Notes: generated by a model from the letters alone, not told the origin. Numbered from the stretch's first letter, positions 7,194 through 64,000 are shown. The stretch: DNA of 64,000 nucleotides from Pseudomonadota bacterium (GCA_016702545.1 JADJDT010000015.1:69744-133743); one strand, 5' to 3'. Program-made: numbers and translations.

Positions 7194-8528
7194 TCAGCCG
7201 TCACAGATTTCGGGCGTGACCAGCAGCGGCCCCAGGGCCAGCCAACGCTCCGCGCGACCGCCACAGCGCTCGAGCACGATATCGGCCGGCGTCTGCCCCC
7301 GCGCCACCAAAGCGGCCAGCGGGGCCAACGCCTGCGCGGCCTGATCGCCATGAGCGAAGCCCGCGCCCAACTCCTGCCGCGCGCTGCCGAGCAGCGCCAG
7401 CGCGACCGCGCGCGCGGAGCGCCCAGCGATCTCGGCCTGCAGGCCATCGCGGGCGAGCGCGGCACTTGCTGCCTCGCTGGCCACCTCATCGAACGCACCC
7501 AACAACGCCAGCGTGCGGCGTCGCGCCCCCTCCCCGAGCAGCAGCCCGGAAAGCAAGGCGATCACCGCCCGCGCGAGACGCGGCTCCTGCGCATCGACGC
7601 TGCGCAGCTCGATCGTGCGCTTGAGCCGCACGTCGGTGAAGATCGTGCTGTTGTGCAGCTCCAGATCATCGAGCGTCGCCGCCCGCCCGGCAAGGCCCCG
7701 CTCGTTGAGCTCCGCGAAGGTCATGTTCGGCGGGGCGCGCAGCCCCTGCGGCGTCGCGACAAAGAGCAGGGGCACCTCGATCAGGTGGGCCAGGTAGTCG
7801 GAGAAGCCGTAGTCCGGCCGCTGGAAGCCGGGCAGCAGGCCACATCGTGCTGGGTCGGTGTTGCGCCAGATCGGCTGGCGGAACGAGCGGAAGCCTGCGA
7901 GCGCCCCGTCGACGAAGGGCGAATGGGCCAGCATCCCCGCGACCCACGGCGCGACGAAGAGCGCCGCGCGCAGCAGCTCACGGCCCACGGCAGCGTCGCT
8001 GTAGTCGAAGGTGATCTGGAGGCTCGCGCTCTGCCGCATCATCCGTCGCCCCATCGTGCCGAGCTCAGCGAAGTGCCGATCCATCAAGCGATAGCGCTCG
8101 GACGGCAGCACGAGGCCGATCTCATCGACGGTGTGCACGGGGCTGACGCCGCCGAAGAAGGGCTGCACCGCGAAGCGCTCGGCCAGGCTCGCCAGCAGGC
8201 CCTCGAAGCGCCTCAGCTGGTCGAGACAACCGGCGAAGGTCGGCTGCGGCTCGCTGGAGAACTCGAGCTGCCCGCCCGGCTCTAGCGACACCGTGGCGCC
8301 CCCCGGCAGGCTGACCTTCTGCGGCGGGTGGCCCGGCTCGAGCGTGCCGCCCAGCCACTGCGCGGCGTGCGCGAGCACGCTGCCGAGTCCCCGCGCGCCG
8401 TCGTAGCGCAGCGGCGTCAGGGTCTGCCGATCGAAGAGCGGGACCTCGTACTCGAAGCCCACGAGGGCGCGATAGGGTCGCGCTGGATCGGGTCGAAACA
8501 GCGTCAGCATCTCGCTGGCCTCGAGCAT
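7194..8528 (-). CDS. glutamate--cysteine ligase family protein (GCS2 / plant-type GshA-like)
   Basis: 444 aa. The N-terminal block LVGFEYEVPLFD... and the segment GGQLEFSSEP are typical of carboxylate-amine ligases. Confidence 0.7.
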   Translation of the reverse strand: MLEASEMLTLFRPDPARPYRALVGFEYEVPLFDRQTLTPLRYDGARGLGSVLAHAAQWLGGTLEPGHPPQKVSLPGGATVSLEPGGQLEFSSEPQPTFAGCLDQLRRFEGLLASLAERFAVQPFFGGVSPVHTVDEIGLVLPSERYRLMDRHFAELGTMGRRMMRQSASLQITFDYSDAAVGRELLRAALFVAPWVAGMLAHSPFVDGALAGFRSFRQPIWRNTDPARCGLLPGFQRPDYGFSDYLAHLIEVPLLFVATPQGLRAPPNMTFAELNERGLAGRAATLDDLELHNSTIFTDVRLKRTIELRSVDAQEPRLARAVIALLSGLLLGEGARRRTLALLGAFDEVASEAASAALARDGLQAEIAGRSARAVALALLGSARQELGAGFAHGDQAAQALAPLAALVARGQTPADIVLERCGGRAERWLALGPLLVTPEICDG

Positions 8529-12324: not shown

Positions 12325-12764
12325 CCCGGCTACCTCCCGTGCCGCCGGCCTCGCCGCGCAGCGACAAGGCCCCCGCCCAGCTGCGGCGAACGCCGCGCCG
12401 AACGGCGCACCACGACCGCCGAAGGCTACTGAGCCCTCCGCCATCGCTGGCGCCCGTGGCGACAGTGGCCTCATTCTCGGCCGGCCGCGCAGCACCGGGC
12501 AACTTTTCGCGCGGTCGTCCACGGGGCTGCCGCGCAGCTCGCCTGAGCCCGCGGCTTGCCCGGACCTTCGCCAACACGGCCAGGGGTACCCCCCGGGCCT
12601 TGCTCGGCCCGACGGGGGCCTTGCCGGGTTCTGCTGGGGTTCGTCGCGCGCGCTGGGGTTCGCTGGGGCCCTTGCGGGCTGAGGGGATCGCGCCGCAGGG
12701 CCCTACGAGGCCCTGCATGGCGCCAGCGGGCGGCTGGCGCGCATTGACGCCGGACGGGCTAGGG

Positions 12765-12837
12765 TGACCCCGGAAGGAATCGAACCTTCAACAAACGGAT
12801 TAAGAGTCCGCTGCTCTGCCAGTTGAGCTACGGGGCC
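12765..12837 (-). tRNA. tRNA-Lys (anticodon CTT)
   Basis: Hand-folded 73-nt cloverleaf: acceptor GGCCCCG/CGGGGTC, D stem GCTC/GAGC, anticodon loop CTCTTAA, T arm GAAGG-TTCGATT-CCTTC. CCA is not encoded. Confidence 0.9.
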
Positions 12838-51228: not shown

Positions 51229-51987
51229 TCACCTACTGGCCTCGACCTTCGCGCGGCGGAAGACGAGCACGGCGAGGTCGTGTCGATAGTCCTCGCCGCC
51301 GCAGCGGACCTCCGTGAGCACCAGCGGGCCAAGCTCCCGGCCGCCGATGACGACCTCGACCGGGTCGCCACCGACGGGGGGCAAGCGGCCCTCCGCGAAG
51401 AGCTGCAGGGCCGAGGGCATCATCGTGTACACCGTCGCGGTACCGTCGTCACCGACCACGCCGCGGTGACGCTCCACCGGGAACCCCAGTGCCGTGTTCC
51501 CGCCCTTTGAGATCTGCACCTCATCGAGGAACCTACCGGCGATGGCGACGCGCTGCTCGATCGGCGGTGGGATCTCGGCCTCCACCCCGTCCGGGAGGGC
51601 CATCGTGCACACGAGGCGCCGCACCCCGTTGTCATCCGCGTCGTAGGTCCAGCTCCCGACCAGCCGCGGATCGAGCCAATGTTCGCGCCGGCGCTCGGTG
51701 AGCAGATCAAAGGTCGCGGCATCGTCGCGGGAGGCCTGGCGCCCGCGCAGGCGCTTGCGAAGGTCCTTCAGCTCCTTGACGCGCGGGTACGTCCAGCGCT
51801 TCGATGCGAGCACGCTGGCGTTCCAGAAGGTCACCGCCAGGGCAACGGCCGCGCGCGCGTCGTCGCTGGCGGGCGCCGAGCCGAGCCTGTCGAGCAGCGG
51901 GGCGGCTAGCTCGAGCACGAGCTCCGCGAGGTCGCGCTCGGGCAGGCGCACGACGGTCCACGAATACGGGTCTCGCCGCCGCGTCAT
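51229..51987 (-). CDS. hypothetical protein
   Basis: ATG at 51987 (MTRRRDPYSWTVVRLPERD...). ATGA overlap with the upstream gene. Confidence 0.55.
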   Translation of the reverse strand: MTRRRDPYSWTVVRLPERDLAELVLELAAPLLDRLGSAPASDDARAAVALAVTFWNASVLASKRWTYPRVKELKDLRKRLRGRQASRDDAATFDLLTERRREHWLDPRLVGSWTYDADDNGVRRLVCTMALPDGVEAEIPPPIEQRVAIAGRFLDEVQISKGGNTALGFPVERHRGVVGDDGTATVYTMMPSALQLFAEGRLPPVGGDPVEVVIGGRELGPLVLTEVRCGGEDYRHDLAVLVFRRAKVEASR

Positions 51988-53258
51988 CGTTCCCCCTCCT
52001 GCAGCTCCTCCCAAGTCCTGCCGGCCTCGACGGCGGCGAGGTTGAAGCGGGCGCCCTGGTTGTCGCCGGGGTTGAGCCACAGCAGCTTGCGGAACACCGC
52101 GGCGGCCTCGCGGGTCTTGCCGAGGCGCCAAAGGCACAGGCCCATGCTGAGCATGCAACGCAGGAACGGGCGGTTGTCGATCAGGCCCCAGGCGAGTACA
52201 CCATCGAACCTCTTGCCGAGCGAGAGCGTGCCGATGCTCAGGCCGACGTCGTAGTGGCGCAGCGCCTGGGCCGGCCGGTGGTCGAAGTCGAAGTTGCCGA
52301 GGTGCGCGTGAGCGTCGAGGCAGCGCAGGTCCTGCGCAAGCATGTTCATCAGGATCTCGCGCGCGCCGACACGATCGCCCGCGGCGTTTAGCTCGCTAGC
52401 CTCAACGATGGGGTCCGAGTCGAAGTCCCCGGGCTCGACGCCCGGGAGCACCTGCTCCATCTCGAACATCGGCCGCTTGCCTCGAGCGATGATGGCCTTG
52501 GCCCACGCTTCAAGGGGCTCGCCCTCTTCGCCCCAGTACCTGGTCTCAGGATCCCACTCGCCGCGAGGGCGAAGGGCGAGCGGTACGAGGCCGAGCGCCT
52601 CCACGTCCGCGCGCATCGAGAGCACACGCCCCGCCAGGTAGGCGTGGCGCGCGTAGGTCCACTGCTTCGTCGGCATGACCGTGATGATCCCGCCGGGCAC
52701 CTCGTCGCGCACCGGCTTGCGCAGCGTGAGTTCGCGGGCCGTGCCCAGCAGGCGGCAGCGGAGCGCGTTCCATTTGCACGCGAGCACGATCAGCTCGACG
52801 GGCCTGCCGACGACGAGGTCGGCGCTCGTGGCCCTGTGGGCGCTCGCCGGCGTGGCGCTGGCAAGCTCCCACCCCCCTTGCGTCAGGCCCGCTCGCGGGT
52901 GCCCGCTGGAGGTGATGGCGCCGGCCGTGACGGGCTCGCCGACGACGAACGCCTCCGCGGGCAGAGCGACCTCCTTCTGCGCGGCGCCCTCGAGCGCACG
53001 GAGCTGCTGGTCCTCGGTCTTTGCGCCCGCGCCGATGCGCGCGAAGGGCGCGCCCGGCGTGTTTGCCGCGGTCGGTTTGGCGAAGGTGCGCCGTCTGTTC
53101 CTCGGGTCGAAGACGCCCCGCTCCTTCGCGTCGGCGATCAGGTCGATGAGCTGGCCGAGGTCCTCGCGTCCGGTGGCGCTGTTGCCGGACTTCGTCTTGG
53201 CGGCGCGGGACTTCGCGCGTGGGGCGGGCTTCTTGGTAGGGGGATTCGGGCGCGTCAC
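51984..53258 (-). CDS. hypothetical protein with a basic N-terminus and a TPR-like C-terminal region
   Basis: GTG at 53258, 424 aa, balanced composition in the C-terminal 300 aa. Confidence 0.55.
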   Translation of the reverse strand: MTRPNPPTKKPAPRAKSRAAKTKSGNSATGREDLGQLIDLIADAKERGVFDPRNRRRTFAKPTAANTPGAPFARIGAGAKTEDQQLRALEGAAQKEVALPAEAFVVGEPVTAGAITSSGHPRAGLTQGGWELASATPASAHRATSADLVVGRPVELIVLACKWNALRCRLLGTARELTLRKPVRDEVPGGIITVMPTKQWTYARHAYLAGRVLSMRADVEALGLVPLALRPRGEWDPETRYWGEEGEPLEAWAKAIIARGKRPMFEMEQVLPGVEPGDFDSDPIVEASELNAAGDRVGAREILMNMLAQDLRCLDAHAHLGNFDFDHRPAQALRHYDVGLSIGTLSLGKRFDGVLAWGLIDNRPFLRCMLSMGLCLWRLGKTREAAAVFRKLLWLNPGDNQGARFNLAAVEAGRTWEELQEGER

Positions 53259-53443
53259 AACGGCTTCCCCTTCTTCCCCGTCGGCGCAGTGGGCGTCGCC
53301 TCGGCCCTAGGGATCCGGAGTTCCCGGATGGTTGCCTCGCGACGGAGCTCGGACGTGGTCCTCGGGGCGCGGTCGGTCATCGGCCCCTCGCCTTGGTGAG
53401 CGCCGCTCGTCCGGCCGGTCTCAGGGTGGCAGATCTCGGTCAT
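53255..53443 (-). CDS. possible small ORF (62 aa) bridging the defence island and the downstream genes
   Basis: Its ATG overlaps the HEPN stop codon (ATGA, 53440-53443) and its TGA overlaps the next GTG (GTGA, 53255-53258). The sequence is low-complexity and may not be coding. Confidence 0.25.
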   Translation of the reverse strand: MTEICHPETGRTSGAHQGEGPMTDRAPRTTSELRREATIRELRIPRAEATPTAPTGKKGKPL

Positions 53444-54161
53444 GGCGCATGCCCTTCCGCGGGCGCGACCGGCGGGACGCTTGCCTGTGCAGGCGGTTGA
53501 CCCGACGACGCTGTCGCGGCGTCGAGGCGCTCCAGTTCGGCCCGCCCACGCTGGATCAGCTCGTCGAGCTTCAACAAGCCCGCGGCCAATTGCCTCGCGC
53601 TCTTGTACTCACTCTCGGGGTCGATGTACCGCGTGACCTTCGAAACGGAGGTGTGCGCGACCTCGCCTCGAGCGGAGCCGAAGGATGAGAGATCCGACAG
53701 CAGCGTGGCGTCAATTTCAGGCGCGCCGATGCCGAGCGGCAGGAGCAACCTGAGGACGTTCTCCTCCTTCAGCCCGTGGTTCTGGCGCTGGGCCGACCTC
53801 CACACGGCCTGCGCCTTCTGGATGGCGTCACGAACATCCAGCTCAGCCCCTTGGTCCTTGAGCGACGAAGGCGGGGGAGTGCGTGGTTGCGACCAGAGAA
53901 CGCGAGCAAGCCAAGCAGAACTCGTGACGGGGTGCCGCGCTCAGACCACGCAGCCCAGGCGGCCTGGAAGAGATCGCTCGCAATCTCCTCGACGTAGGCC
54001 TCCATCTCCGCGTGCACGAGCACCCGAAACGATGCCGCCCGAAGATGCACTTCGTCGGGCTTGTCGTACGTGCCCGTCGGGTCAAACGGATCGGGCAAGA
54101 GCACCTTCCGCAGACGCTCGATGGCGTTTCCAAGCCTTTCGTGAAGCTCCGATCCGGCCAC
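53440..54161 (-). pseudogene. HEPN-domain (Rx4H) nuclease-like gene, frameshifted
   Basis: The N-terminal part is ORF 53769..54161 and the C-terminal part is ORF 53440..53805. The C-terminal part contains RGEVAH (Rx4H). The frames meet at a G5 run (53873-53877). It resembles the MAE_28990/MAE_18760-type HEPN genes that accompany DUF262 genes. Confidence 0.6.
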
Positions 54162-54164
54162 GTC

Positions 54165-55342
54165 TCACCCCAGAAGCTGGAGAAGGTGATCCGCTTGTCC
54201 GCGATCTTGGGAACGGCGAAGTCGAGGCCTGTGGCCTTGCGCAGCGCGCTCCCCCACGCGTCGAGTCGGAGCGCGGTGTTCTCCACACCTGCGGTGTCAC
54301 GCTCGACGGCAGCAGCGAACGCTCTGTCGGCGAAGAGGTTCGCATAGGCCGCGCGAACATCGTCGCCGTGGAGCGCGGTCGCCTCTCGAATGCGCGGATC
54401 CACGGCGAAGAACAGCAGCGCGTCTAGAATCGCTCGATTGAGCTGCCTGGAGCCGGGCTTTCGCGCGACGCCATCCGGAAACACCTGAAGGAGCGACAGG
54501 ATGGCGGCGTCGAACGAGTCGGCAGCCGCCACGATCGCGTCCTTCTTCGCCGGCCAGGTCTTGTTCATGTCCTCGAAGGCTGCATCGAGAAACGACTTGA
54601 AGCGTCCCCCGTAGGTCCCGAGGAAGAAGTGAAAGGCCAGGTAGCGCGCCAGCAACTCAACGTCGCGCATTCGGTAGTCGGGACCCTCGAGGCCGAGGAG
54701 GTCCCTGAGCCCCGTACTCTCGACCGAGCGCTCGTCCACGAAGTCAGTGAACTCGCCGGGGAAAAGGGCCTGCCGGAGTTCCTGCGGAGAGAGCTTCACG
54801 CTGCCTGTGTTCAGGCGAAGGAAGACCAGATGCAGGAACTCGATGTTGGGCCAGTTCTTGATTACGACCGTCCGAATCGGCTGATTCAGCAAGGACGTGA
54901 AGTCGTCGAGAAGCGCCGGGTCCCCTTCGAGGTCGGCGTACGTCTTGCCGGACAGCCCCTTGCGCACGTCCAGACCCGACAGTCGGTAGGAGTTGTTCGG
55001 GCCCTCGCCGAATCCCCAGAACTGAAGGAGAGAGCAACCTTTGCTTCCCGTCCAGCACCACGAAGCTCCTCTGCGCTCGCGTGATTCCGCCAGGACGATC
55101 TGGGGAATCGGCAGGCCGAGGATCAAGGACTCAATGAACTGGCTCTTCCGCTGTTTGTCCCAAGCATCGCGCCGCTGAAATCGAGGCTTCAGCACGATAT
55201 TGCCCCGCTTCAACTGGGACACGACGGTCTCCGTCGTCCAATCGGTCGCATGAAGGACCACATCGGAGTAGCGGACCTGAGCACTCGGCTCCGATGCTTC
55301 CTCGCTCGAGGCTTCCGAGAATTCGACGGGATCACGGGTCAT
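54165..55342 (-). pseudogene. DUF262 (ParB/GmrSD N-terminal-like) protein gene with a scrambled DGQQR motif and no native stop
   Basis: ATG at 55342. LKPRFQRRDAWDKQRKSQFIESLILGLPIPQIVL is a DUF262 hallmark. The expected VVLDGKQRLLS motif is readable only in another frame (55028-55069). The ORF then runs on to 53843 across the HEPN gene. Confidence 0.65.
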
Positions 55343-55427
55343 CGTTGCTCTCTCCGTTTTCGGTGTCTTTCGAGGCGTCCGTGGGCCCGCAGATCCACCT
55401 CGCGTAGCGCTGCGACCTCCGCGCCCC

Positions 55428-56249
55428 TCATGGCGCAAGCCCCCTCGTCAGCCGTCGCACGTAGCCCCGGTCGATGAGGCTCTCGAACTGCGTCCGCAGC
55501 GCCCGCGCGAAGACCGCGTCCTCGAGCAGGACGCCTGCCTCGATGTTTCGGCCTTGGGCGGCCTCGGTCAGGTTGGCGGAGGTGACGAACGCGCGCGCGT
55601 CGTCCACGACCACGCACTTGGCGTGCAGGCACGCGCTCTCCTCACCCACCGCCTGGAGCGAGCGCGGGTCGTAGTAGACCTCGGGCACGGGTTCCCAGGG
55701 CCAGATCTCCTTCCGGAACCAGCCGACGAAGGCGTCCTCGACGTCGCGCTCGGACGCGTGCGCCATGTAGTCAAGGCGACGGAGGTTCACGAAGATGCGC
55801 ACCGTCAGGCTGCTGACCTCGGCCATGCGCTTCGCGAGCGGGAGCAGCACCGGGTTGCCCTTGGCCTCGCCTTCCTTCGCCTTGTGGCCGAGGTTGAAGG
55901 TCGAGACGACGACCGACTCACGCGCTCCGCGAAAGAGCTCGTTGCAGACGACGGCCGTGTCCCGCGAGCCCGCGATGTCGAGATCGGACCAGACCAGCGA
56001 TGGCTGCGGCTTCACCTCGCCCACCCTTCGCGCCGCCTCCGCCAGACGCAGCGCAGCGACGAGCGCGCCAGCCTCGAGGCCGGCAGCGTGCAGCGCCTCG
56101 ATCAACCGCAGCGCGTCGGTCTGCTCGCCCTTTGCGACCTGACGCCCGACCTGCATCGCGCCGAACGGAGCGACGAGGGCGCCGCGCTCCACGGCACCAG
56201 CGAGCGCCCCGAGCGCCGTCGCGGACAGGATCGGAAGCGCCTCGCTCAC
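55428..56249 (-). CDS. drmC: phospholipase D-family protein, DISARM DrmC-like
   Basis: 273 aa. HKD motif LHAKCVVVDD...SANLT. GTGA overlap with the drmB stop codon. Confidence 0.75.
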   Translation of the reverse strand: MSEALPILSATALGALAGAVERGALVAPFGAMQVGRQVAKGEQTDALRLIEALHAAGLEAGALVAALRLAEAARRVGEVKPQPSLVWSDLDIAGSRDTAVVCNELFRGARESVVVSTFNLGHKAKEGEAKGNPVLLPLAKRMAEVSSLTVRIFVNLRRLDYMAHASERDVEDAFVGWFRKEIWPWEPVPEVYYDPRSLQAVGEESACLHAKCVVVDDARAFVTSANLTEAAQGRNIEAGVLLEDAVFARALRTQFESLIDRGYVRRLTRGLAP

Positions 56250-58081
56250 GAGCCCTCCGCGAAGAACGCGGCGTCAGCAAGGTCGACCGTCGGAACAACC
56301 AGCGAGCGGTCGAGCAGCTCGTTGCGCCGCTCGCACGAGGGCTCCGCGATCAGCAGGCATCCGTGGCACGCCGCCCCGTGCATGATGCGCCCTTCGTGGA
56401 GTTGGTTCGGCTTGTGCTGCGCGCAGACCGGGTCGTTGCTGCAGAGACGTCCGAGCTCGAGCGCGGCGTCGAGGTGGCGCGCGATTCTCCGGCCAACCTG
56501 CACGAGGCCGCCGAGCGTGCCCTCGGCGTCCGGCGTGCCGGTGTAGAGCAGCAAGCCATAGGCGCCGTCGCGCACGTAGATGCGCTCGCGGATGCTCGCT
56601 GCCGCGTAGCCGCACTCGAGCGAGATCGCTGTGAGCAGGAGGTGCGAGAGCGAGTGCAGCATGATGTACGGCATGTAGATCTGCTCGACGCGCTCGAGCG
56701 GGATCGGGTTCTTCGAGGTACTCTGCACCCCGCCCTGGAACTCGAGCGCGCGCTGCTTCACCGCGGGGCGAGTCGTCCACGCCTTCACCTTCGCGGCATC
56801 GAGCGCGAGGAAGACGCCCTCGCCGCGATTCTCAATGGCCGGCAGCCAGCGGGTCTCGAGGGCGAGCGCGGCGAGGCGAACACCGAGGTCGACCTCCGAG
56901 TCGACGGGCAGCGCCGGAGATTCGAACCGGGTGAAGCCGATCTCGCTGACAACCTCGCGAAGTCGGTGGGCGAGCACCACGCGCTCGACCGACGCGATCG
57001 CCCCCTTGCGCTTGGCATCGAGCGGCAGGCGTCGCGCGTAGAAGTCGCCCTCGGGCTTGTCGTCGCCGAGCTCGTCGGGAACGGAGAGGAACGTGTCGAG
57101 CTCGACGTCCTTCAGGCCCTTCTGCGTCTCCGCGCCTCCTCCTTGACGACGCTCGCACTCGGCCCAGACCTCGGCATCGGTCAGTCCTTCGAGTGCGAGC
57201 TGCACGCGTTGCTTCTTTCGCTCGCGCTTGATGTCCGCCGCGCTCTCCGCGACCGAGAGGAAGTCGTCCCAGACCGAGTCGACGGCCTTGCGGAGGCGCT
57301 CGTCGTGATCCGGGATCGAGATCGCGCGCTCGACCACAGGGAAGTACGCGTTGCTAGCGTGGCGGATCAGGAGCTTGTTGCGGTGGGGCTTGTCGTGAGG
57401 GCCAACGCAGGTCTCCCTCGCCATCGGCCCGAGCCACGGGCGATCGCCGCGGCACTCGCCGAGCACCGACCGCTCCTCGGACGTAGCCTGCAGGCGAACG
57501 AGCGACATCGGCTGGCTCGTGCACCCATCACATCGGACAAACAGCTCGGCGAGATCGCCAGTCGTGCCGCGCTCGTCGAACCAGAGTTGGCCGCCGCAGG
57601 CGACTCCGTCACCATGGACGAGTCGCGGCCAGTCGATGTCGCTCACGTGACCGTTGGGGCAGGCCTGCACGAAGCGAACGGGCACGACAGGCCAGTCCTT
57701 GCGCTTGCGCTTGCCGGTTGGATCGTCTCCGACGTAGCGCCCCTTCACCAGCGCCTTGCGGTGCACGAGCGGTCGAGACCGACCGTACTGCTTGGTGCTC
57801 ACCTCGAACTGCGCGACGAACCACTCAGGGAACTGCCAGGCGACGATGCCGATGCCGAGCTCGTCCTCGCGCTCCGGGACTGGCGGCGAGCGCAGCTCGA
57901 GGAACGGCAGGCCAAGCCGGCGACGCAGGTTCGCGAGCAGTCTCGGCTCGGGGACGAGCTACGCATCGCCGGCCCAGTGCTCGAGGCCCGCGACGAGCAC
58001 CGCGTAGTCCGGGAGATCGACGAGCGCGCCCGGCCCGTACGTGGAGACGATCTGGCTCTGACGAATCTTGACGATGCTCAC
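56246..58081 (-). pseudogene. drmB: DUF1998 protein, DISARM DrmB-like, interrupted by an in-frame TAG
   Basis: GTG at 58081 (GTGA overlap with drmA) gives VSIVKIRQSQIVSTYGPGALVDL... A TAG at 57959-57961 is in the same frame as ORF 56246..57802. Translation across it is continuous and protein-like. C-terminal Cys cluster CHGCLLIAEPSCERRN. Confidence 0.75.
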
Positions 58082-61000
58082 GTCGCCTCCGGGGTGCCGC
58101 CGTCGAGGCGTCGCACGATGACGGGCACCTCGGCCTCCACGTCGCGCAGCGACCACTGCGCCTTGAATTTGCGGAGCTTGGAGTGCGGCGGCTCCTTCTT
58201 CAGATCCGCGTCGAGCGGGTCGTGCAGCAGCGGTGGCCGAGGCTTGGCCTCGAAGGGCCCGTACTGGAGCCCGGCCTGCACCGCGGCCTTCTCCGCGGCG
58301 ATCTGCTCCCAGGTGTCGAGCAGATCATCGACACGCGCGTCCATCTTCCCGCCCAGCTCCTGTCGCTCTGCGGGCTCGAGATCCTTCGTGTGGTTCTCGG
58401 CGCGCGCCCGCACTGTGGTCTTGAGCCAGCCGAGCCGAGACCGATGCAGCGCGAGATCCGCCGCGCGTGCGGCAGGGGTGAGCGCCGCCTCGCCGTGGCG
58501 GGCCAGCGAGACCACCACGGCGGCGAGCCCGCGGTCGACAGCGCGTGGGGCGAACGGCGTCACGCTGGTCGCCTCGACCGCCCGATAGAAGGTCTCGTGG
58601 TAGGCCTCGAACCGCTCGTAGTGCGAGCGGTCGCGGGGCTTGTGGACGTTGAGCAGCGTGATGACCAATCCCGGGCGCTCTTCGTCGCGGCCGACGCGGC
58701 TCGTGGCCTGGATGTACTCGGCCGAGGTCTTCGGCTGACCGAGCACCACCATCAAGCCAAGGCGGGTGATGTCGAGACCGACGGAGATCATGTTCGTCGC
58801 GAGCGCGACGTCGACCCGGCCATCTTCTGCAAAAGGGAGCGCGAGGCGACGCTTCGCCTGCGCGACGCGGTTGGTCGGCTCGCGCGAGGTGAGCTCGATC
58901 GCGTCGAACTGGATCGTGCGGTCCACGAACGGGCATTCAGCCTCGGCCACCCTTCGATGCCGGAAGTAGCCCTGGAGGCGGCTGCGCACCTCGTCCTCGA
59001 CAATGCGGCGGCTCCCACCAAGCTCGCGCAGGGCGTTGAAGTACCCAAGGAGCGTCATGTAAGGGTCGGCGGGATTCGTCGCGTTGGCGGCGCCACCGGC
59101 CGCGTCGTAGTGCTTCTTCCCGGCCGAGAGCAGCGCCAGGTAGGTGCGCAGCAGGACGACCTTCAAGCTGCGCCCCTGGGCTGCCACGCCGACGTAGAGC
59201 CGAGGGTGCTTCACGGAAACGCTCACGGTGTGCGCGAAGAACGAGTCGCGCCGATCGGGACCAGGCGGCGGGAACACGTCCACCTGCGAGCGATTGAAGA
59301 GCGCGCGAACCTGGGCCTCGGCGCGCCGCACCGTCGCCGTGGACGCCACGATCTTCGGCAGCACGGTCTTGCCAGCGACCTCGCGGCGACAGAGGGCCTC
59401 GACGGCGGTCTCGTACAAGCCGACCATCGTGCCGAGCGGCCCGCTGATGAGGTGCAGCTCGTCCTGGATGATGAGGTCGGGCGGCAAGAACGGCCGCGGC
59501 AGCTTGCTGCCGCCCGCACCGTCGCCCGGCCCGTAGAAGCCGCCGCCGTCGAACCGCTCGACCTTTCCGAAGAGCTTGCCCGGGGTCGAGAGCCAGGGCA
59601 GCGACGCGAGCTTGTCGACCGTGGCGATGATGAAGCACGGCAGGCGTCGGTAGAGCGGCTCGTCCACCGCGACGATTGGGAGCGGGTTGTCGCGCGTGAA
59701 CGCGCAGTCCTCGTTCGCGCAGGTGATGCGCAGATCGGTCGGCTGATCCGTCGTGGGAATGAGGCGGAACGAGGTGGCCTCGAATTTGGTGCCGCACCAA
59801 GGGCAGTTCTCGATAGGGATGGGCGCAGGCTTGTACTTGCTGTCGCCTTGAAAAGCGATGGTCCGCGCGCGCGCCGAGCTGCGGTCGTTGTCGCCCTTCT
59901 TGCCCATCCGGTTCGGGGTCGCTTTGCGGCCGACCCAGAGGCCGATCTCGAAGGGCCACTTGCCGAGCTTCTCGACGTCCTTCTCGCGCTCGAGCTCGAG
60001 GGCGCAGATGAGCGTCGCCGCGCGGCCGAGCTGGTCCAGCGTGAGGAGGCGCAGCGTGTAGCGCATCAGGACGCTGACGCCCGACGAACTCACGCTCGGA
60101 TCGCGCAGCCTGCGGAGCGCGAGCGTGAACGCTGCGAGCCCCAGGTAGGCCTCGGTCTTGCCGCCGCCGGTGGGGAAGAAGAGCAGGTCGAGGACCTCGC
60201 GCTCGGGGTCGGTGGGCTTCGCGATACCGCGAAGGTTCATCAGCACGAAGGCGAGCTGGAACGGGCGCCACGTCGGCGCGCTCACCTGGTCGGGTCTCCA
60301 TCCCTTGAGCTGCGCCGTTCGCTGACGCGCCGCCGCCGCCGCCATCGTGCGGTTCGCGATCTGGAAGGCCTCGAGCACGAGCGGGTCCTCGAGCTCGACG
60401 AGCCCCTGGGCGATGCGCTGCCGCGCGAGCTCGCAGCGATCGAGGAGATCCTTCGCGACCTCAGCGCGCCGCTGCTGAGTCGGCGCAGCCGCGCGCTGCC
60501 TGGCGATCCAGGCGCCGTACTCCGTGCCGAACGCGCCGAGTGCGGCCTTCGCCTCGGCTGCCGTCTTCACGGCCGCGAGCTTCTCCATCGAGAGCTCGAC
60601 GCCTGCGATGCTGGTGGGGTCGACCTTCTCCACGGCCGCGACGGGGATCCACGTGCTGCGAACCTCGTGGCACACGCCGCCTTCGATGATCGCGTCGGTC
60701 GAGACGCCATGACCCACGGAGAACTCGAAGGCGTCGCGGTACTGGAGATCGGCGATGCGCTCGTCGGCGTCGTCATCGACCAGGCCGCGGAGATTCGGTC
60801 GCGCGACGAAGCCCTCCTTAAGCTTCAGGATCAGCTGGGCCTGAAAGAGGTGCCCCTCGTCGACTCGCTCTTCGCCCTCGGGGTCACGCTCGTTCACGAC
60901 GAACACGGAGACAGCGCGCGTGCCCGCGGGTAGCTCGTTTCCCTTGGGGCCGAGGTTGCTCACGTCGCGAGCCGACACGTAGAGGCACACGCCCCTGCTG

Positions 61001-61482
61001 TCGGGCAGCTCGGTGCGACCGAGCCCTTTCGGGGGAAGCGAGACGTCGACGGTGTGCCTGCGCTGCGTGCGCTGCCACGCCTTGCGGTCGGGGTGCTCGG
61101 GATCCTCCGTCGACACCTTGGTGTAGTCGCCCCACAGCACCTCGGCCGAGAGCGTCTTCACGCCCTTGGGCACGAGCACGCTGATGCCGAGCGACGATGG
61201 CAGGAAGACCTTGCGCGCAGGGGCCTTGTCGGGCTCCACGTCGTCGTCACCCGTGCCCTCGTCGGAGCCCACGACCGCGTCGAGGACCTCCTCGGATTCG
61301 GGGTCGTGCCGCTGCGACTCGGGGGCCTCGGTGGGGACGAGGAAGCCCGTGAGGTACCAGCGAGACGGAGGCTCACTCTCCCACAGGCGCTCCGCCTCGA
61401 GCGCGTGGCCAGGGCCGGGCCCGACCAAGTCGAGCTGCAGGGTGTCGATGAGCTTCTGCCGGATCTCTGCGGAGGTCGTCAT
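58078..61482 (-). CDS. drmA: large SF2 helicase, DISARM DrmA-like
   Basis: ATG at 61482, 1134 aa. Motif I PTGGGKTEAYL, motif II IIQDELHLISGPLG, motif VI-like YIQATSRVGR. Confidence 0.8.
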   Translation of the reverse strand: MTTSAEIRQKLIDTLQLDLVGPGPGHALEAERLWESEPPSRWYLTGFLVPTEAPESQRHDPESEEVLDAVVGSDEGTGDDDVEPDKAPARKVFLPSSLGISVLVPKGVKTLSAEVLWGDYTKVSTEDPEHPDRKAWQRTQRRHTVDVSLPPKGLGRTELPDSRGVCLYVSARDVSNLGPKGNELPAGTRAVSVFVVNERDPEGEERVDEGHLFQAQLILKLKEGFVARPNLRGLVDDDADERIADLQYRDAFEFSVGHGVSTDAIIEGGVCHEVRSTWIPVAAVEKVDPTSIAGVELSMEKLAAVKTAAEAKAALGAFGTEYGAWIARQRAAAPTQQRRAEVAKDLLDRCELARQRIAQGLVELEDPLVLEAFQIANRTMAAAAARQRTAQLKGWRPDQVSAPTWRPFQLAFVLMNLRGIAKPTDPEREVLDLLFFPTGGGKTEAYLGLAAFTLALRRLRDPSVSSSGVSVLMRYTLRLLTLDQLGRAATLICALELEREKDVEKLGKWPFEIGLWVGRKATPNRMGKKGDNDRSSARARTIAFQGDSKYKPAPIPIENCPWCGTKFEATSFRLIPTTDQPTDLRITCANEDCAFTRDNPLPIVAVDEPLYRRLPCFIIATVDKLASLPWLSTPGKLFGKVERFDGGGFYGPGDGAGGSKLPRPFLPPDLIIQDELHLISGPLGTMVGLYETAVEALCRREVAGKTVLPKIVASTATVRRAEAQVRALFNRSQVDVFPPPGPDRRDSFFAHTVSVSVKHPRLYVGVAAQGRSLKVVLLRTYLALLSAGKKHYDAAGGAANATNPADPYMTLLGYFNALRELGGSRRIVEDEVRSRLQGYFRHRRVAEAECPFVDRTIQFDAIELTSREPTNRVAQAKRRLALPFAEDGRVDVALATNMISVGLDITRLGLMVVLGQPKTSAEYIQATSRVGRDEERPGLVITLLNVHKPRDRSHYERFEAYHETFYRAVEATSVTPFAPRAVDRGLAAVVVSLARHGEAALTPAARAADLALHRSRLGWLKTTVRARAENHTKDLEPAERQELGGKMDARVDDLLDTWEQIAAEKAAVQAGLQYGPFEAKPRPPLLHDPLDADLKKEPPHSKLRKFKAQWSLRDVEAEVPVIVRRLDGGTPEAT

Positions 61483-61531
61483 CGCAAAGTGCCCTCGGTA
61501 TGCGGAGCGGATTCGATGGTCGAACAGGGCC

Positions 61532-62426
61532 TCAGCATGACCACCCCGCATCCGTCACGGCCGCCTGCTTGGCGGATGGCACATGGTGCAGGTGGCCTGG
61601 GTTCCCCTCCGTCGAAGGCGCAGCGAATTCGACAACGTTGATCTGGGCGACACCGATCGCCTGTTGCGCCGCCGCGTTGTGGATGAAGACGTCCCAGTGG
61701 TACCCGGCACCGCCATTGATGTTCGGGCGAGCCCACCCGTTGTCGTGGGCATCGACCCAGGCGTGGCCTAGATGCAACGGTGCGGAATGCAGTGATCGAT
61801 CCCTTCCACCACTGGTTGGGGACGCAAAAGGGATAGCGGGCTCCGTCCGCCACCGTCGGCAAGCGCCAGTCGAAGCGCGCCGTCCAGGGCTCGCGGAGGT
61901 TGCGCGGGTGGTACACGCACAACACCTGGCGAGGGCCAACGCCGCTCGGCTGCACATGCAGCACCCAGCGCGTGTTCTCGTGGAGTGTGGAGTTCCCCGC
62001 GGTGTGGATGACGAGGTTCCGCCCGTTCATTCGACGGCAGAACATGACGACCTGTTGGCCACTCGAAACAGCCCGAATCACCGCGAGGGCCATCCTGTCG
62101 GTCCACGGTAGCTGGAGGTGGGGGCCACCGAATAGCACGGTGAATCCTCGACGCCATGCGACGCCCGCGTTCGCCGACAGCGCGGCGATGTGCGCGTCCG
62201 ACGACGGGGCAGCGCGTCGGACCGCTTGGAGCGTTCGTTTCGCCTCGGCCGAAAGCTGACTCTCGAGGGCGCTTCCAATCTCGCTCCACAGCGCGGGCCA
62301 ATACTCGCGGAGCGGCGTTAGCTCGATGTTGTGCTCGCGACACGCGCGCAGAACGACCTCGAGATCGCTCACCACCTCGGCTTCGGCGCGAGCGAGGAAC
62401 AGCGTGGGGTCGAGGAGGCCGATCAT
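61532..62426 (-). pseudogene. unknown partner gene of the AAA ATPase, apparently frameshifted
   Basis: ATG at 62426 (ATGA overlap with the ATPase stop). Beyond roughly 61800 the GC3-rich, protein-like frame switches to that of ORF 61532..61957 (..HLGHAWVDAHDNGWARPNINGGAGYHWDVFIHN..GHLHHVPS). No family was recognised. Confidence 0.5.
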
Positions 62427-63994
62427 GGCGCTTCGTCCCTCTCGGGTTCGTCGTTGTCGTTCCAGTCCACGTTCCCGGTGGAGGCGTCGTTTTTCGTCTT
62501 GTCGAGCTTCGCGTAGTAGATGGCGCTCTCTTCGTCGGTCGCTTCATCCATGAAGTCGGCGGGCCACACCTCGCCGACGCCACCCTCCGCGGTCAGGTGG
62601 CTCGACGTCACGGTGGAGAGCCCGGCCGCATCCTGCTCTACGCTGAGCACCACGACGTTGCCGAGAAGCCACTGCTCTAGCTCGGATCCCTTGCCAGCGC
62701 GCGCAACCAAGCCGCGCAGCCGCCGCACGAGATGGTCGCTGTGCGTCTCGACAATGAGCCTGCGATTCGTCATCGCGAGGCTCACCAGCCAATGCGCAAG
62801 CTGGCTCGCGACCTTGGGGTGAAGATGCGCCTCAGGCTCCTCGAGAGCGATATGCGTGTAGCCGGGACAGCGCGCCGCGTAGGTCGCGACCGGCGTGCTG
62901 CCGGCCTGCCCGTCGAAGTGCAGCGGGTCTGCGATGAGGCCGAGCTCGATGAGCGGCAGGAGGTAGCCAAGCCCACGACCCACATGCGACAGGCTGGCGC
63001 TCCCAAAGAGTACACGGAACCCGACTTCGTGAATTTCCTCGACCCTGAGCGGCGCACTGATCCCAAGTGCGGCAAGCGTCTCGTTCACGGCCTCGACCAG
63101 GGGCACAGCCTGCACCTCGGAGGGGAGGCTCGGCGCTGCGACCTGCAGCGGCCGCGCGAAGTGGACGAGGTCCTTCTGCCGCCGGTGCAGGAGTTGGGCT
63201 GCAAGCTCCCCGGATACGCCGATCTCGTTCGGAGCCGTGGTGGCTATCTTGAATAGGCTCGGCGGCGGCTGGCGCGTCGAGCCCAGGTATTGGAGGCCGC
63301 TGAGGATCGACTTCAATGCCTGCAGGGGCTGTGCGAACAGAAATAGGAAGCCGTTGCGATAGGCGCGCTGCTTGTCGCGCGGACCGGGGCTGCCGGTGAT
63401 GTTCACGTACGGGATGAAGTGCTCGACCTCGGCGACCAACTTCGGCGCGCTCTGATCCGCCCACGTCACGCTGGGCTCCTCGTGGGGACGGATCACCACG
63501 GAGACCGGCTCGGGCGTGATTGCGTCGAGAGTGAGCTGTGAGATACGTGCGCTCCCTGCGACCTCCTCAGTATCGATGCGCAGCCGTGTTCGAACGGCAC
63601 GCTGCCCCGTTGCAGAACCGAGCCAGTTCAAGGTGTGTTTCGCAAGGTTGGCTCGATCAGGGTTGCGCGCCTCCGCCACGGCCTCGTCGATGTCGACCTC
63701 TGACTCCCACTCGACCTCGATCGACGGGCCGACGATCCTTCCGTTCGCAGGCGGCCAGCCGGAGGTCAGCTCGCGCAACGACAGCGCGTCGACGAGTCCG
63801 TCGAGGCGAAGGGGAACCTCGGGGCGCACCTCGGCGAGGGTCTGCTTCAATAGCAGCAGCGCCTGAATTAGGGTGCTCTTGCCGGAGTTGTTACGTCCCA
63901 GAACGATCGTGAGCGGCGCGAGCTCCACGCGCGTCGGGGCCGAGTACGACTTGAAACGCTCCACGGAGATCGCGACGAGTTTGCCCTTCTTCAT
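62423..63994 (-). CDS. AAA15/AAA21-type ABC-like ATPase (DUF3696-like C-terminus)
   Basis: Walker A GRNNSGKST, Walker B/D-loop IALEEPEAHLHP, H-loop VETHSDHLVRRL. 523 aa. The start lies 6 nt from the window edge. Confidence 0.75.
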   Translation of the reverse strand: MKKGKLVAISVERFKSYSAPTRVELAPLTIVLGRNNSGKSTLIQALLLLKQTLAEVRPEVPLRLDGLVDALSLRELTSGWPPANGRIVGPSIEVEWESEVDIDEAVAEARNPDRANLAKHTLNWLGSATGQRAVRTRLRIDTEEVAGSARISQLTLDAITPEPVSVVIRPHEEPSVTWADQSAPKLVAEVEHFIPYVNITGSPGPRDKQRAYRNGFLFLFAQPLQALKSILSGLQYLGSTRQPPPSLFKIATTAPNEIGVSGELAAQLLHRRQKDLVHFARPLQVAAPSLPSEVQAVPLVEAVNETLAALGISAPLRVEEIHEVGFRVLFGSASLSHVGRGLGYLLPLIELGLIADPLHFDGQAGSTPVATYAARCPGYTHIALEEPEAHLHPKVASQLAHWLVSLAMTNRRLIVETHSDHLVRRLRGLVARAGKGSELEQWLLGNVVVLSVEQDAAGLSTVTSSHLTAEGGVGEVWPADFMDEATDEESAIYYAKLDKTKNDASTGNVDWNDNDEPERDEAP

Positions 63995-64000
63995 TTGGTC

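Follow-up and report, generated by a model that had tools for sequence, protein, structure and literature searches.

A stretch of 64,000 nucleotides (nt) from a Pseudomonadota bacterium (JADJDT010000015.1:69744-133743), here called the window, ends in an island of seven minus-strand genes that run in one direction across 53440-63994: an ABC-type ATPase gene, a gene for a partner protein, the DISARM genes drmA, drmB and drmC, and a DUF262 gene followed by a HEPN-like gene. The question that this locus raises is whether a DISARM core that appears to lack its methyltransferase has become part of a new multi-module system, or whether several systems have come to lie side by side. The original prediction, made from the sequence alone, rightly recognized seven co-directional genes with defence-type motifs and offered both answers; the second, three stacked systems, is essentially correct. 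We consider it highly probable that the island constitutes the distal portion of a class 1 DISARM operon with an autonomous ATPase and partner cassette nested inside it and a separate PD-T4-2-like pair behind it. Class 1 DISARM and the PD-T4-2-like pair are known, and the uncharacterised element is the ATPase and partner cassette in a recurrent intra-operon slot. The nearest relatives of the window, which has a GC content of ∼70%, are metagenome bins of Polyangiaceae and other Myxococcota, and related loci are referred to below by L numbers.

The DISARM operon and its cargo slot

Curated DISARM models uphold the assignments of all three core genes, and the failure of profile hidden Markov model searches that had been named as a way of refuting them did not occur; the Pfam and PADLOC searches proposed at the same time for the island proteins also sustain the DUF262 and HEPN labels. 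The product of drmA (58078-61482; 1134 amino acids (aa), intact), a superfamily 2 helicase, matches the PADLOC DrmA model at 5e-290, the NCBIfam equivalog DISARM_DrmAS at 1173 bits (cut-off 950) and Pfam Helicase_C, and carries GGGKT as motif I and DELH as motif II. Alignments with L008 and L004 place its start at the ATG at 61482 instead of at 61551, as first proposed. Directly after drmA, whose stop is overlapped by its GTGA, comes drmB (56246-58081; 611 codons), with matches to PADLOC DrmB at 1.4e-65 and to Pfam MZB/DUF1998 at 1.3e-9; its intact orthologue in L004 scores 536 bits on DrmB_fam (cut-off 240). The PLD-family product of drmC (55428-56249; 273 aa, intact) matches PADLOC DrmC at 1.1e-70, DISARM_DrmC_I at 155.7 bits (cut-off 133) and Pfam PLDc_2 and PLDc, and contains the HKD motif LHAKCVVVDD. 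Class 1 DISARM, exemplified by the system of Serratia sp. SCBI, consists of drmD, drmMI, drmA, drmB and drmC (bioRxiv 10.1101/2021.12.28.474362), and a structure of DrmAB has been described (PMC9142583). The window has the last three genes in this canonical order, with DrmA and DrmC above the NCBIfam cut-offs and DrmB supported through the L004 orthologue, and the fit of DrmC to the class I equivalog speaks against class 2. As to the class 2 genes drmMII and drmE, the flanks of drmABC hold the ATPase pair and the DUF262 and HEPN genes instead, the rest of the window being unscanned for C5 methylases.

The apparent lack of a methylase is most probably an artefact of the window cut. Only 6 nt separate the ATPase start codon from the end of the window, so nothing farther upstream is visible; the statement that no methyltransferase is in view is literally true, but as a property of the locus it reflects the edge of the window. 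The ATPase ATG lies in an ATGA, and in relatives the gene upstream uses the identical stop/start overlap. L019, which is 96.2% identical at the nt level over window positions 64000-58972 and so runs to the window edge, has the order drmD, drmMI, ATPase367, DUF3226, ATPase523, partner and drmA; its drmMI matches the PADLOC model at 6e-234, and ATPase367 is AbiL/PDC-M38-like. The gene order is the same in L027, whose DrmA is 97% identical to that of the window. L020, a short-read contig, carries a helix-turn-helix (HTH) gene, drmD, drmMI, ATPase523, partner, ATPase362, DUF3226 and drmA, and L008 carries drmD, drmMI, ATPase, partner, a PLD gene and drmABC. In these orthologous loci drmD encodes an SNF2 protein and drmMI an MmeI/Eco57I-type N6-adenine methylase. 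Scanning metagenomes with DrmA yielded 58 loci, and drmD-drmMI was present in 19 of the 19 distinct loci whose contigs extend far enough upstream. Because drmD-drmMI lies upstream in all relatives that reach that far, we assign the locus to class 1 DISARM and not to a methylase-less derivative, and we infer that drmD and drmMI lie just past position 64000. A methyltransferase together with drmD upstream of 64000, the arrangement of a standard DISARM that had been named as refuting the new-system reading, is thus indicated by orthology and not by direct sight. As the missing methylase most probably reflects the window cut alone, there is no case for pursuing the locus as a methylase-less DISARM.

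The full operon would then read drmD, drmMI, cargo, drmA, drmB, drmC, with the ATPase and partner cassette inserted in a variable slot between drmMI and drmA. Among distinct scan loci in which the 3′ end of drmMI and the start of drmA are both resolved, drmMI abuts drmA in 12 and the two genes are separated by 1-6 kb of cargo in 16. Two more loci, L034 and L058, have cargo with drmMI not in view, and the slot is also occupied in L008, L019 and L020, which came from earlier searches. Across loci L027-L084 the cargo comprises an AbiL-like ATPase and DUF3226 pair; the same pair plus the present ATPase and partner cassette, in either order; Gabija (GajA at 1e-142 with a UvrD helicase); LmuB-like SMC ATPases resembling Lamassu; an AriA-like (PARIS-like) protein of 622 aa; a PD-Lambda-4_A-like protein; an extra SNF2 helicase; and genes without assignment. 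We therefore regard the drmMI-drmA junction as a recurrent variable cargo slot of class 1 DISARM operons. The locus differs from the canonical class 1 arrangement in that one or two ATPase-based cassettes lie between drmMI and drmA, in the amber codon of its drmB copy, and in that drmD and drmMI fall outside the visible sequence. The suggestion that in a standard DISARM the neighbouring genes would be mere bystanders does not fit the ATPase and partner genes, which sit inside the operon; on the question first raised of whether the neighbourhood is recurrent, the pair occupies this junction in six or more distinct loci of myxobacteria (the window, L004, L008, L009, L019, L020/L021 and L027). 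An internal slot of this kind has parallels in the genes embedded in type I restriction-modification (R-M) and BREX loci; it could be mined for further systems, and it would allow one to ask whether nested and host systems cooperate.

Lesions and condition of this copy

The gene set called in the original prediction is real, but its integrity is not, as four of the seven genes (partner, drmB, DUF262 and HEPN) are disrupted in the assembly. In the partner gene (61532-62426, minus strand), comparison with close relatives shows one surplus C near 61763-61766, which shifts the frame by +1; the assembled open reading frame (ORF) continues to 61479, and the true end is 61532, giving 297 aa after repair. 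In the DUF262 gene (54165-55342, minus strand; ∼393 aa after repair), three indels were mapped against L024 (93.7% nt identity to window 56100-53514). Two of them, -1 at 55068 and -2 at 55031, jointly garble 12 codons, among them those of the DGxQR nucleotide-binding motif; the third, -1 in the G-run at 54168-54171, abolishes the stop codon. The HEPN-like gene (53440-54161, minus strand), mapped in the same way, has a +2 frameshift in a C-run at 53876-53877, and its homology to relatives ends at 53514, implying that its 3′ end has been replaced. Since the assembled partner, drmB, DUF262 and HEPN genes all carry disabling lesions, this copy of the island has probably lost some or all of its activity.

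The lesion in drmB is of a different kind. Codon 41 is TAG in the window (57959-57961, minus strand), the gene being otherwise intact, and also in L072 (3103-3105), an independent metagenome contig that is 94.9% identical to the window and in which drmA is truncated. The codon is CAG in L004, L027, L033 and others, and CAA in L085, the nearest intact allele. A genome-wide reassignment of TAG was rejected, as TAG terminates 5 of 30 long ORFs and there is no other credible in-frame TAG. The two TAG-bearing drmB copies differ by 75 synonymous and 12 nonsynonymous changes, and the resulting ratio of nonsynonymous to synonymous substitution rates (dN/dS), 0.048, is as low as among intact alleles. 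That read-through has kept the amber codon in place over a long time was considered in view of this value. However, four-taxon informative sites are conflicting and interleaved (13/13/7), which points to pervasive short-tract recombination, and given such recombination a segregating null allele is the simpler reading of the amber codon; read-through of the TAG, though possible, is not needed to explain the data.

Alternatively, the lesions could all be artefacts of sequencing or assembly, in an island that works fully in the living organism. Of the six indel events, five alter the length of a short run or simple tract (CC/C, CTCTCCCTCC, G5/G4, C3/C5); L019 shows different frameshifts, in partner, drmD and drmMI; and dN/dS of the affected genes against intact relatives is low, 0.03-0.13 (a misaligned second segment of HEPN being excluded). 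Against this, a 1042-aa AcrB gene with an end-to-end Pfam match and a 4.4-kb ORF elsewhere in the window are uninterrupted, and drmA, drmB, drmC and the ATPase gene, 7.6 kb together, are free of indels, so the lesions are concentrated and not evenly spread; moreover, the drmB TAG is a substitution that recurs in the independent contig L072. We consider a wholly artefactual origin unlikely, if still to be taken seriously. The indels themselves would be either very recent or in part assembly errors.

The ATPase and partner cassette

The ATPase gene (62423-63994, minus strand; 523 aa, intact) is the first gene of the nested cassette. Its product matches Pfam AAA_15 (1.4e-20) and AAA_21 (7.6e-17), with weaker P-loop and SMC-type AAA-clan matches besides, and in PADLOC it matches NsnB best, over the full length (5.5e-44); no NCBIfam model reaches its cut-off. 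The Walker A motif reads GRNNSGKST, and the Walker B motif IALEEPE. The partner, whose start overlaps the ATPase stop, has no match in Pfam, PADLOC, NCBIfam or PHROG. Intact 297-aa orthologues are present in L004, L020 and L027. Homologues form 176 clusters at 90% identity, all of ∼297 aa, all labelled hypothetical and without a Pfam domain, and a profile search of 1.84 billion representatives gave only 129 matches with a single fixed architecture, on which grounds a domain shuffling of the kind seen in NsnC was rejected. Those matches of odd length that were checked and have a Pfam match proved to be deletion chimeras or unrelated, some of them fused to fragments of MmeI-type methylases or ATPases. 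Three proteins, P0349 (590 aa), P0358 and P0367, have the C-terminal ∼45-58 residues of the partner joined to such fragments and are probably deletion remnants of decayed loci in which drmMI preceded the cassette.

An AlphaFold2 model of P0001, a partner homologue with 86% identity, is of high confidence (predicted local distance difference test 94.6, predicted template modelling (TM) score 0.90), and has no Foldseek match below E 0.1 in the PDB or BFVD. Its N-terminal part gives a weak match to the PIN-domain structure 1v8o (TM-score 0.41, probability 0.16), and a profile of the family against PDB sequences found chance matches only. Among the invariant residues are D6, which immediately follows the first strand, and H243, D245, N263 and H281; these last four, with H280, make up a conserved His/Asp/Asn cluster.

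In 18 genome loci and in L019-L023, the ATPase gene lies directly upstream of the partner gene, always adjacent and often with an ATGA overlap. The pair is not confined to DISARM: of the 18 loci from the genome scan, 14 gave no match to DISARM, and several copies adjoin genes for ValRS, aconitase or HrpB. In L022 (184-7053), also devoid of DISARM, the neighbours of the pair are a tyrosine integrase gene and a BubE/ThiF-E1/E2/multi-ubiquitin gene set, and in L023 it adjoins a type I R-M system. Its occurrence without DISARM, next to integrase, R-M or housekeeping genes, argues that the ATPase and partner form an autonomous, mobile and rare two-gene cassette. The order of cassettes in the slot is reversed between L019 and L027, in which ATPase367-DUF3226 precedes ATPase523-partner, and L020, in which it follows, suggesting that cassettes are shuffled within the slot.

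Several further observations concern the cassette boundaries. Over the 5′ ∼950 nt of the ATPase gene (window 63040-63994), no DNA alignment with L027 (7111-8080) can be made, the proteins being 61% identical there, whereas the remaining block, window 63039 to 55470, is 91% identical to L027; this contrast suggests a recombination breakpoint within the ATPase gene. The gene preceding the ATPase ends in similar last ∼8 codons in L020, where it is drmMI (7670-7690, ...ALFGDKEDA*), and in L019, where it is the DUF3226 gene (8030-8054, ...RLFGDKETK*), and the final 6 nt of the window (63995-64000) agree with the L019 version. Perhaps the cassette brings a leader and ribosome-binding site of its own. 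A decayed arrangement is seen in L009 (9759-13106), in which a C-terminal remnant of drmMI is followed by an intact ATPase and partner and then by only the first ∼200 codons of drmA; an opposite-strand ORF of 500 aa lies just upstream of the drmMI remnant.

Modules of the PARIS and AbiL types and the Rlo genes embedded in type I R-M loci are among the nearest known systems, and such modules are often nested in R-M-type loci. As in PARIS (AriA/AriB), AbiL (AbiLi/AbiLii) and Rlo, an AAA_15/AAA_21 ABC ATPase is paired with a small protein in the position of an effector, and the window ATPase gives partial matches to AriA (1.9e-22). In contrast to the effectors of those systems, the partner has no TOPRIM, DUF4435 or RloB domain and no detectable relative in sequence or structure. 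Membership of the pair in PARIS or Gabija was not borne out, as the AriA and GajA matches are local to the ATPase motifs and the partner lacks a TOPRIM or other known domain. By analogy with PARIS, AbiL and the NsnB/NsnC proteins of Menshen, the ABC ATPase might sense a phage cue and then release or activate the partner as an effector. The neighbours in the slot supply the main indirect evidence for regarding the pair as a defence module, and the company that the family keeps likewise points to such a role. This rare, compact family, with a partner whose structure is confidently predicted and has no known relatives, is a lead worth following, and intact copies are available in L020 and L027.

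PARIS responds to the anti-restriction protein Ocr in a guard-like manner, and the pair could similarly belong to DISARM as an accessory layer, for example by acting as a guard that sets off abortive infection upon phage inhibition of DrmAB or the methylase. It is embedded in the operon and recurs at one junction in the myxobacterial loci named above; in L020 it is joined by 4-nt overlaps to drmMI and to the genes downstream, every called gene of that array being an uninterrupted full-length ORF that overlaps its neighbour or lies within 4 nt of it, which makes translational coupling likely; and other cargoes of the slot are likewise ATPase-based systems of the abortive-infection type. However, in most loci the pair is far from any DISARM or methylase gene, the slot is empty in many class 1 DISARM loci, and the exchange of cassettes between L019 and L020 looks like shuffling and not like a fixed architecture. 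A dedicated accessory role seems improbable to us.

Our reading of the island as a class 1 DISARM operon with an independent cassette and a further pair has points that weigh against it. The window itself is without drmMI and drmD, whose presence in this genome is deduced through orthologous loci. Some of the lesions could be assembly errors and not real decay, given the short homopolymers or simple tracts in which they fall and the low dN/dS. The pair is a candidate for an anti-phage role by analogy, and since the partner has no recognisable catalytic fold in the Foldseek and PDB profile searches, its role as an effector is an analogy too. Finally, the overlapping or nearly abutting genes across the L020 array make a functional integration with DISARM possible. 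Beyond this reading, we would suggest, tentatively and in the knowledge that it may well prove wrong, that the ATPase and the 297-aa partner are an undescribed two-gene anti-phage system with an effector of new fold, and that the drmMI-drmA junction is a dedicated landing slot through which systems of the abortive-infection type are exchanged, possibly as a second line that fires when DISARM is inhibited.

The DUF262 and HEPN pair and the flanks of the island

The DUF262 protein is ParB-like and matches Pfam GmrSD_N (1.8e-12); after repair it matches NsnA (6e-53) and PD-T4-2_A (3.9e-36, profile positions 17-354 of 363) and is 98% identical to P0121, an intact protein of 398 aa. The HEPN-like protein has the R-x4-H motif RGEVAH, and with GmrSD_N this bears out both calls of the original prediction. 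Its matches to PD-T4-2_B are weak (8e-4 to 3e-3), and an intact orthologue matches HEPN_RiboL-PSP at 3.8e-4, under the Pfam cut-off. Intact DUF262 relatives (392-398 aa) are followed, 3-4 nt downstream and in unrelated contexts, by a HEPN-like protein of 232-236 aa: the orthologue is intact at 232 aa in L024, and in L025 and L026, where it has 236 aa and comes directly after DUF262, no called neighbour is a DISARM gene. Only the window and L024 have the pair after drmC; L004 (89.6% nt identity to window 63569-55422) diverges at once beyond drmC, and L085 has a radical-SAM gene there.

PD-T4-2 consists of a DUF262 protein and a HEPN-like protein (PADLOC-DB), and the window pair resembles it in its order, a DUF262 gene followed by a gene for a ∼235-aa protein with R-x4-H, in the full-length match of its A component (4e-36) and in being kept together in unrelated contexts. 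It differs in the weak match of its B component (2.6e-3), in the higher score of its A component on the NsnA model, and in the frameshifts of both genes. We conclude that the DUF262 and HEPN genes are a separate, third system of PD-T4-2-like type, in which DUF262 would act as a ParB-like NTPase sensor and HEPN as an RNase-type effector.

These distributions also bear on the proposal that drmABC was recruited, without a methylase, into a new multi-module system with the two flanking pairs, for which the seven co-directional genes, several of them joined by 4-nt overlaps, and the want of a methylase in the window might speak: with the window cut 6 nt before the ATPase start codon, drmD-drmMI upstream in all close relatives including L019, L027, L020 and L008, the three modules found independently of one another, and L004 matching from the ATPase through drmC and diverging right after, it is very improbable.

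The NsnB and NsnA matches call for a comparison with Menshen, which comprises NsnA (ParB-DUF262 with ParBDB), NsnB (an ABC ATPase that ends in a DUF3696 helix) and NsnC, an inPIN N-terminal domain joined to a polymorphic nuclease C-terminal domain (PMC12065111). The cassette resembles Menshen in its NsnB-like ATPase and in the translationally coupled multi-domain hypothetical protein that follows it, as NsnC follows NsnB, and Menshen too is often linked to R-M-like systems. Unlike in Menshen, no NsnA adjoins the ATPase, and no DUF262 ORF is adjacent in any of 24 ATPase and partner loci; the DUF262 gene of the window is 7 kb away, past drmABC, and has its own HEPN partner; no DUF3696 tail was detected on the ATPase (Pfam, E <= 0.01); and the partner family is small and uniform instead of polymorphic, has no PADLOC NsnC match, and has a C-terminal domain that fits none of the Pfam-annotated NsnC effector families. 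A split Menshen, with drmABC inserted between an NsnB-like ATPase and its NsnC-like partner on one side and an NsnA-like DUF262 gene on the other, accordingly has hardly any likelihood and was rejected on the 24 loci, the conserved HEPN partner, the fixed partner architecture and the undetected tail, despite the best matches of the two proteins and a partner of at least two domains whose N-terminal part is faintly similar to 1v8o, the entry cited for the inPIN domain of NsnC (PMC12065111).

The four 4-nt overlaps first reported (62423-62426, 58078-58081, 56246-56249 and 53440-53443) are each found at those positions, and there are two more, an ATGA at 63991-63994 and a GTGA at 53255-53258. The predicted GC mosaic holds in direction: whole-gene values are 65.3% for the ATPase, 66.1% for the partner, 62.6% for DUF262 and 65.8% for HEPN, against 69.2%, 68.3% and 70.4% for drmA, drmB and drmC and 71.6% for the remainder of the window. 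Its size does not hold, the contrast being far below the 53-58% versus 70-78% that had been quoted. A 62-aa ORF (53255-53443, minus strand), which the range first given for the island included, has no family match in PADLOC or Pfam; it falls outside the block conserved with relatives and, as the homology with L024 ends at 53514, is probably not an island member. Just downstream of the island lies a 424-aa ORF of no family (51984-53258), whose homologue in L072 (72-1913) is directly upstream of the 5′-truncated drmA, where homology to the window begins at about drmA codon 912; its different placement points to distinct rearrangements, in the two genomes, of the surroundings of one DISARM remnant. 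The sole tRNA gene of the window, tRNA-Lys (CTT), is at 12763-12837 on the minus strand, 40 kb from the island, in whose vicinity no integrase was seen.

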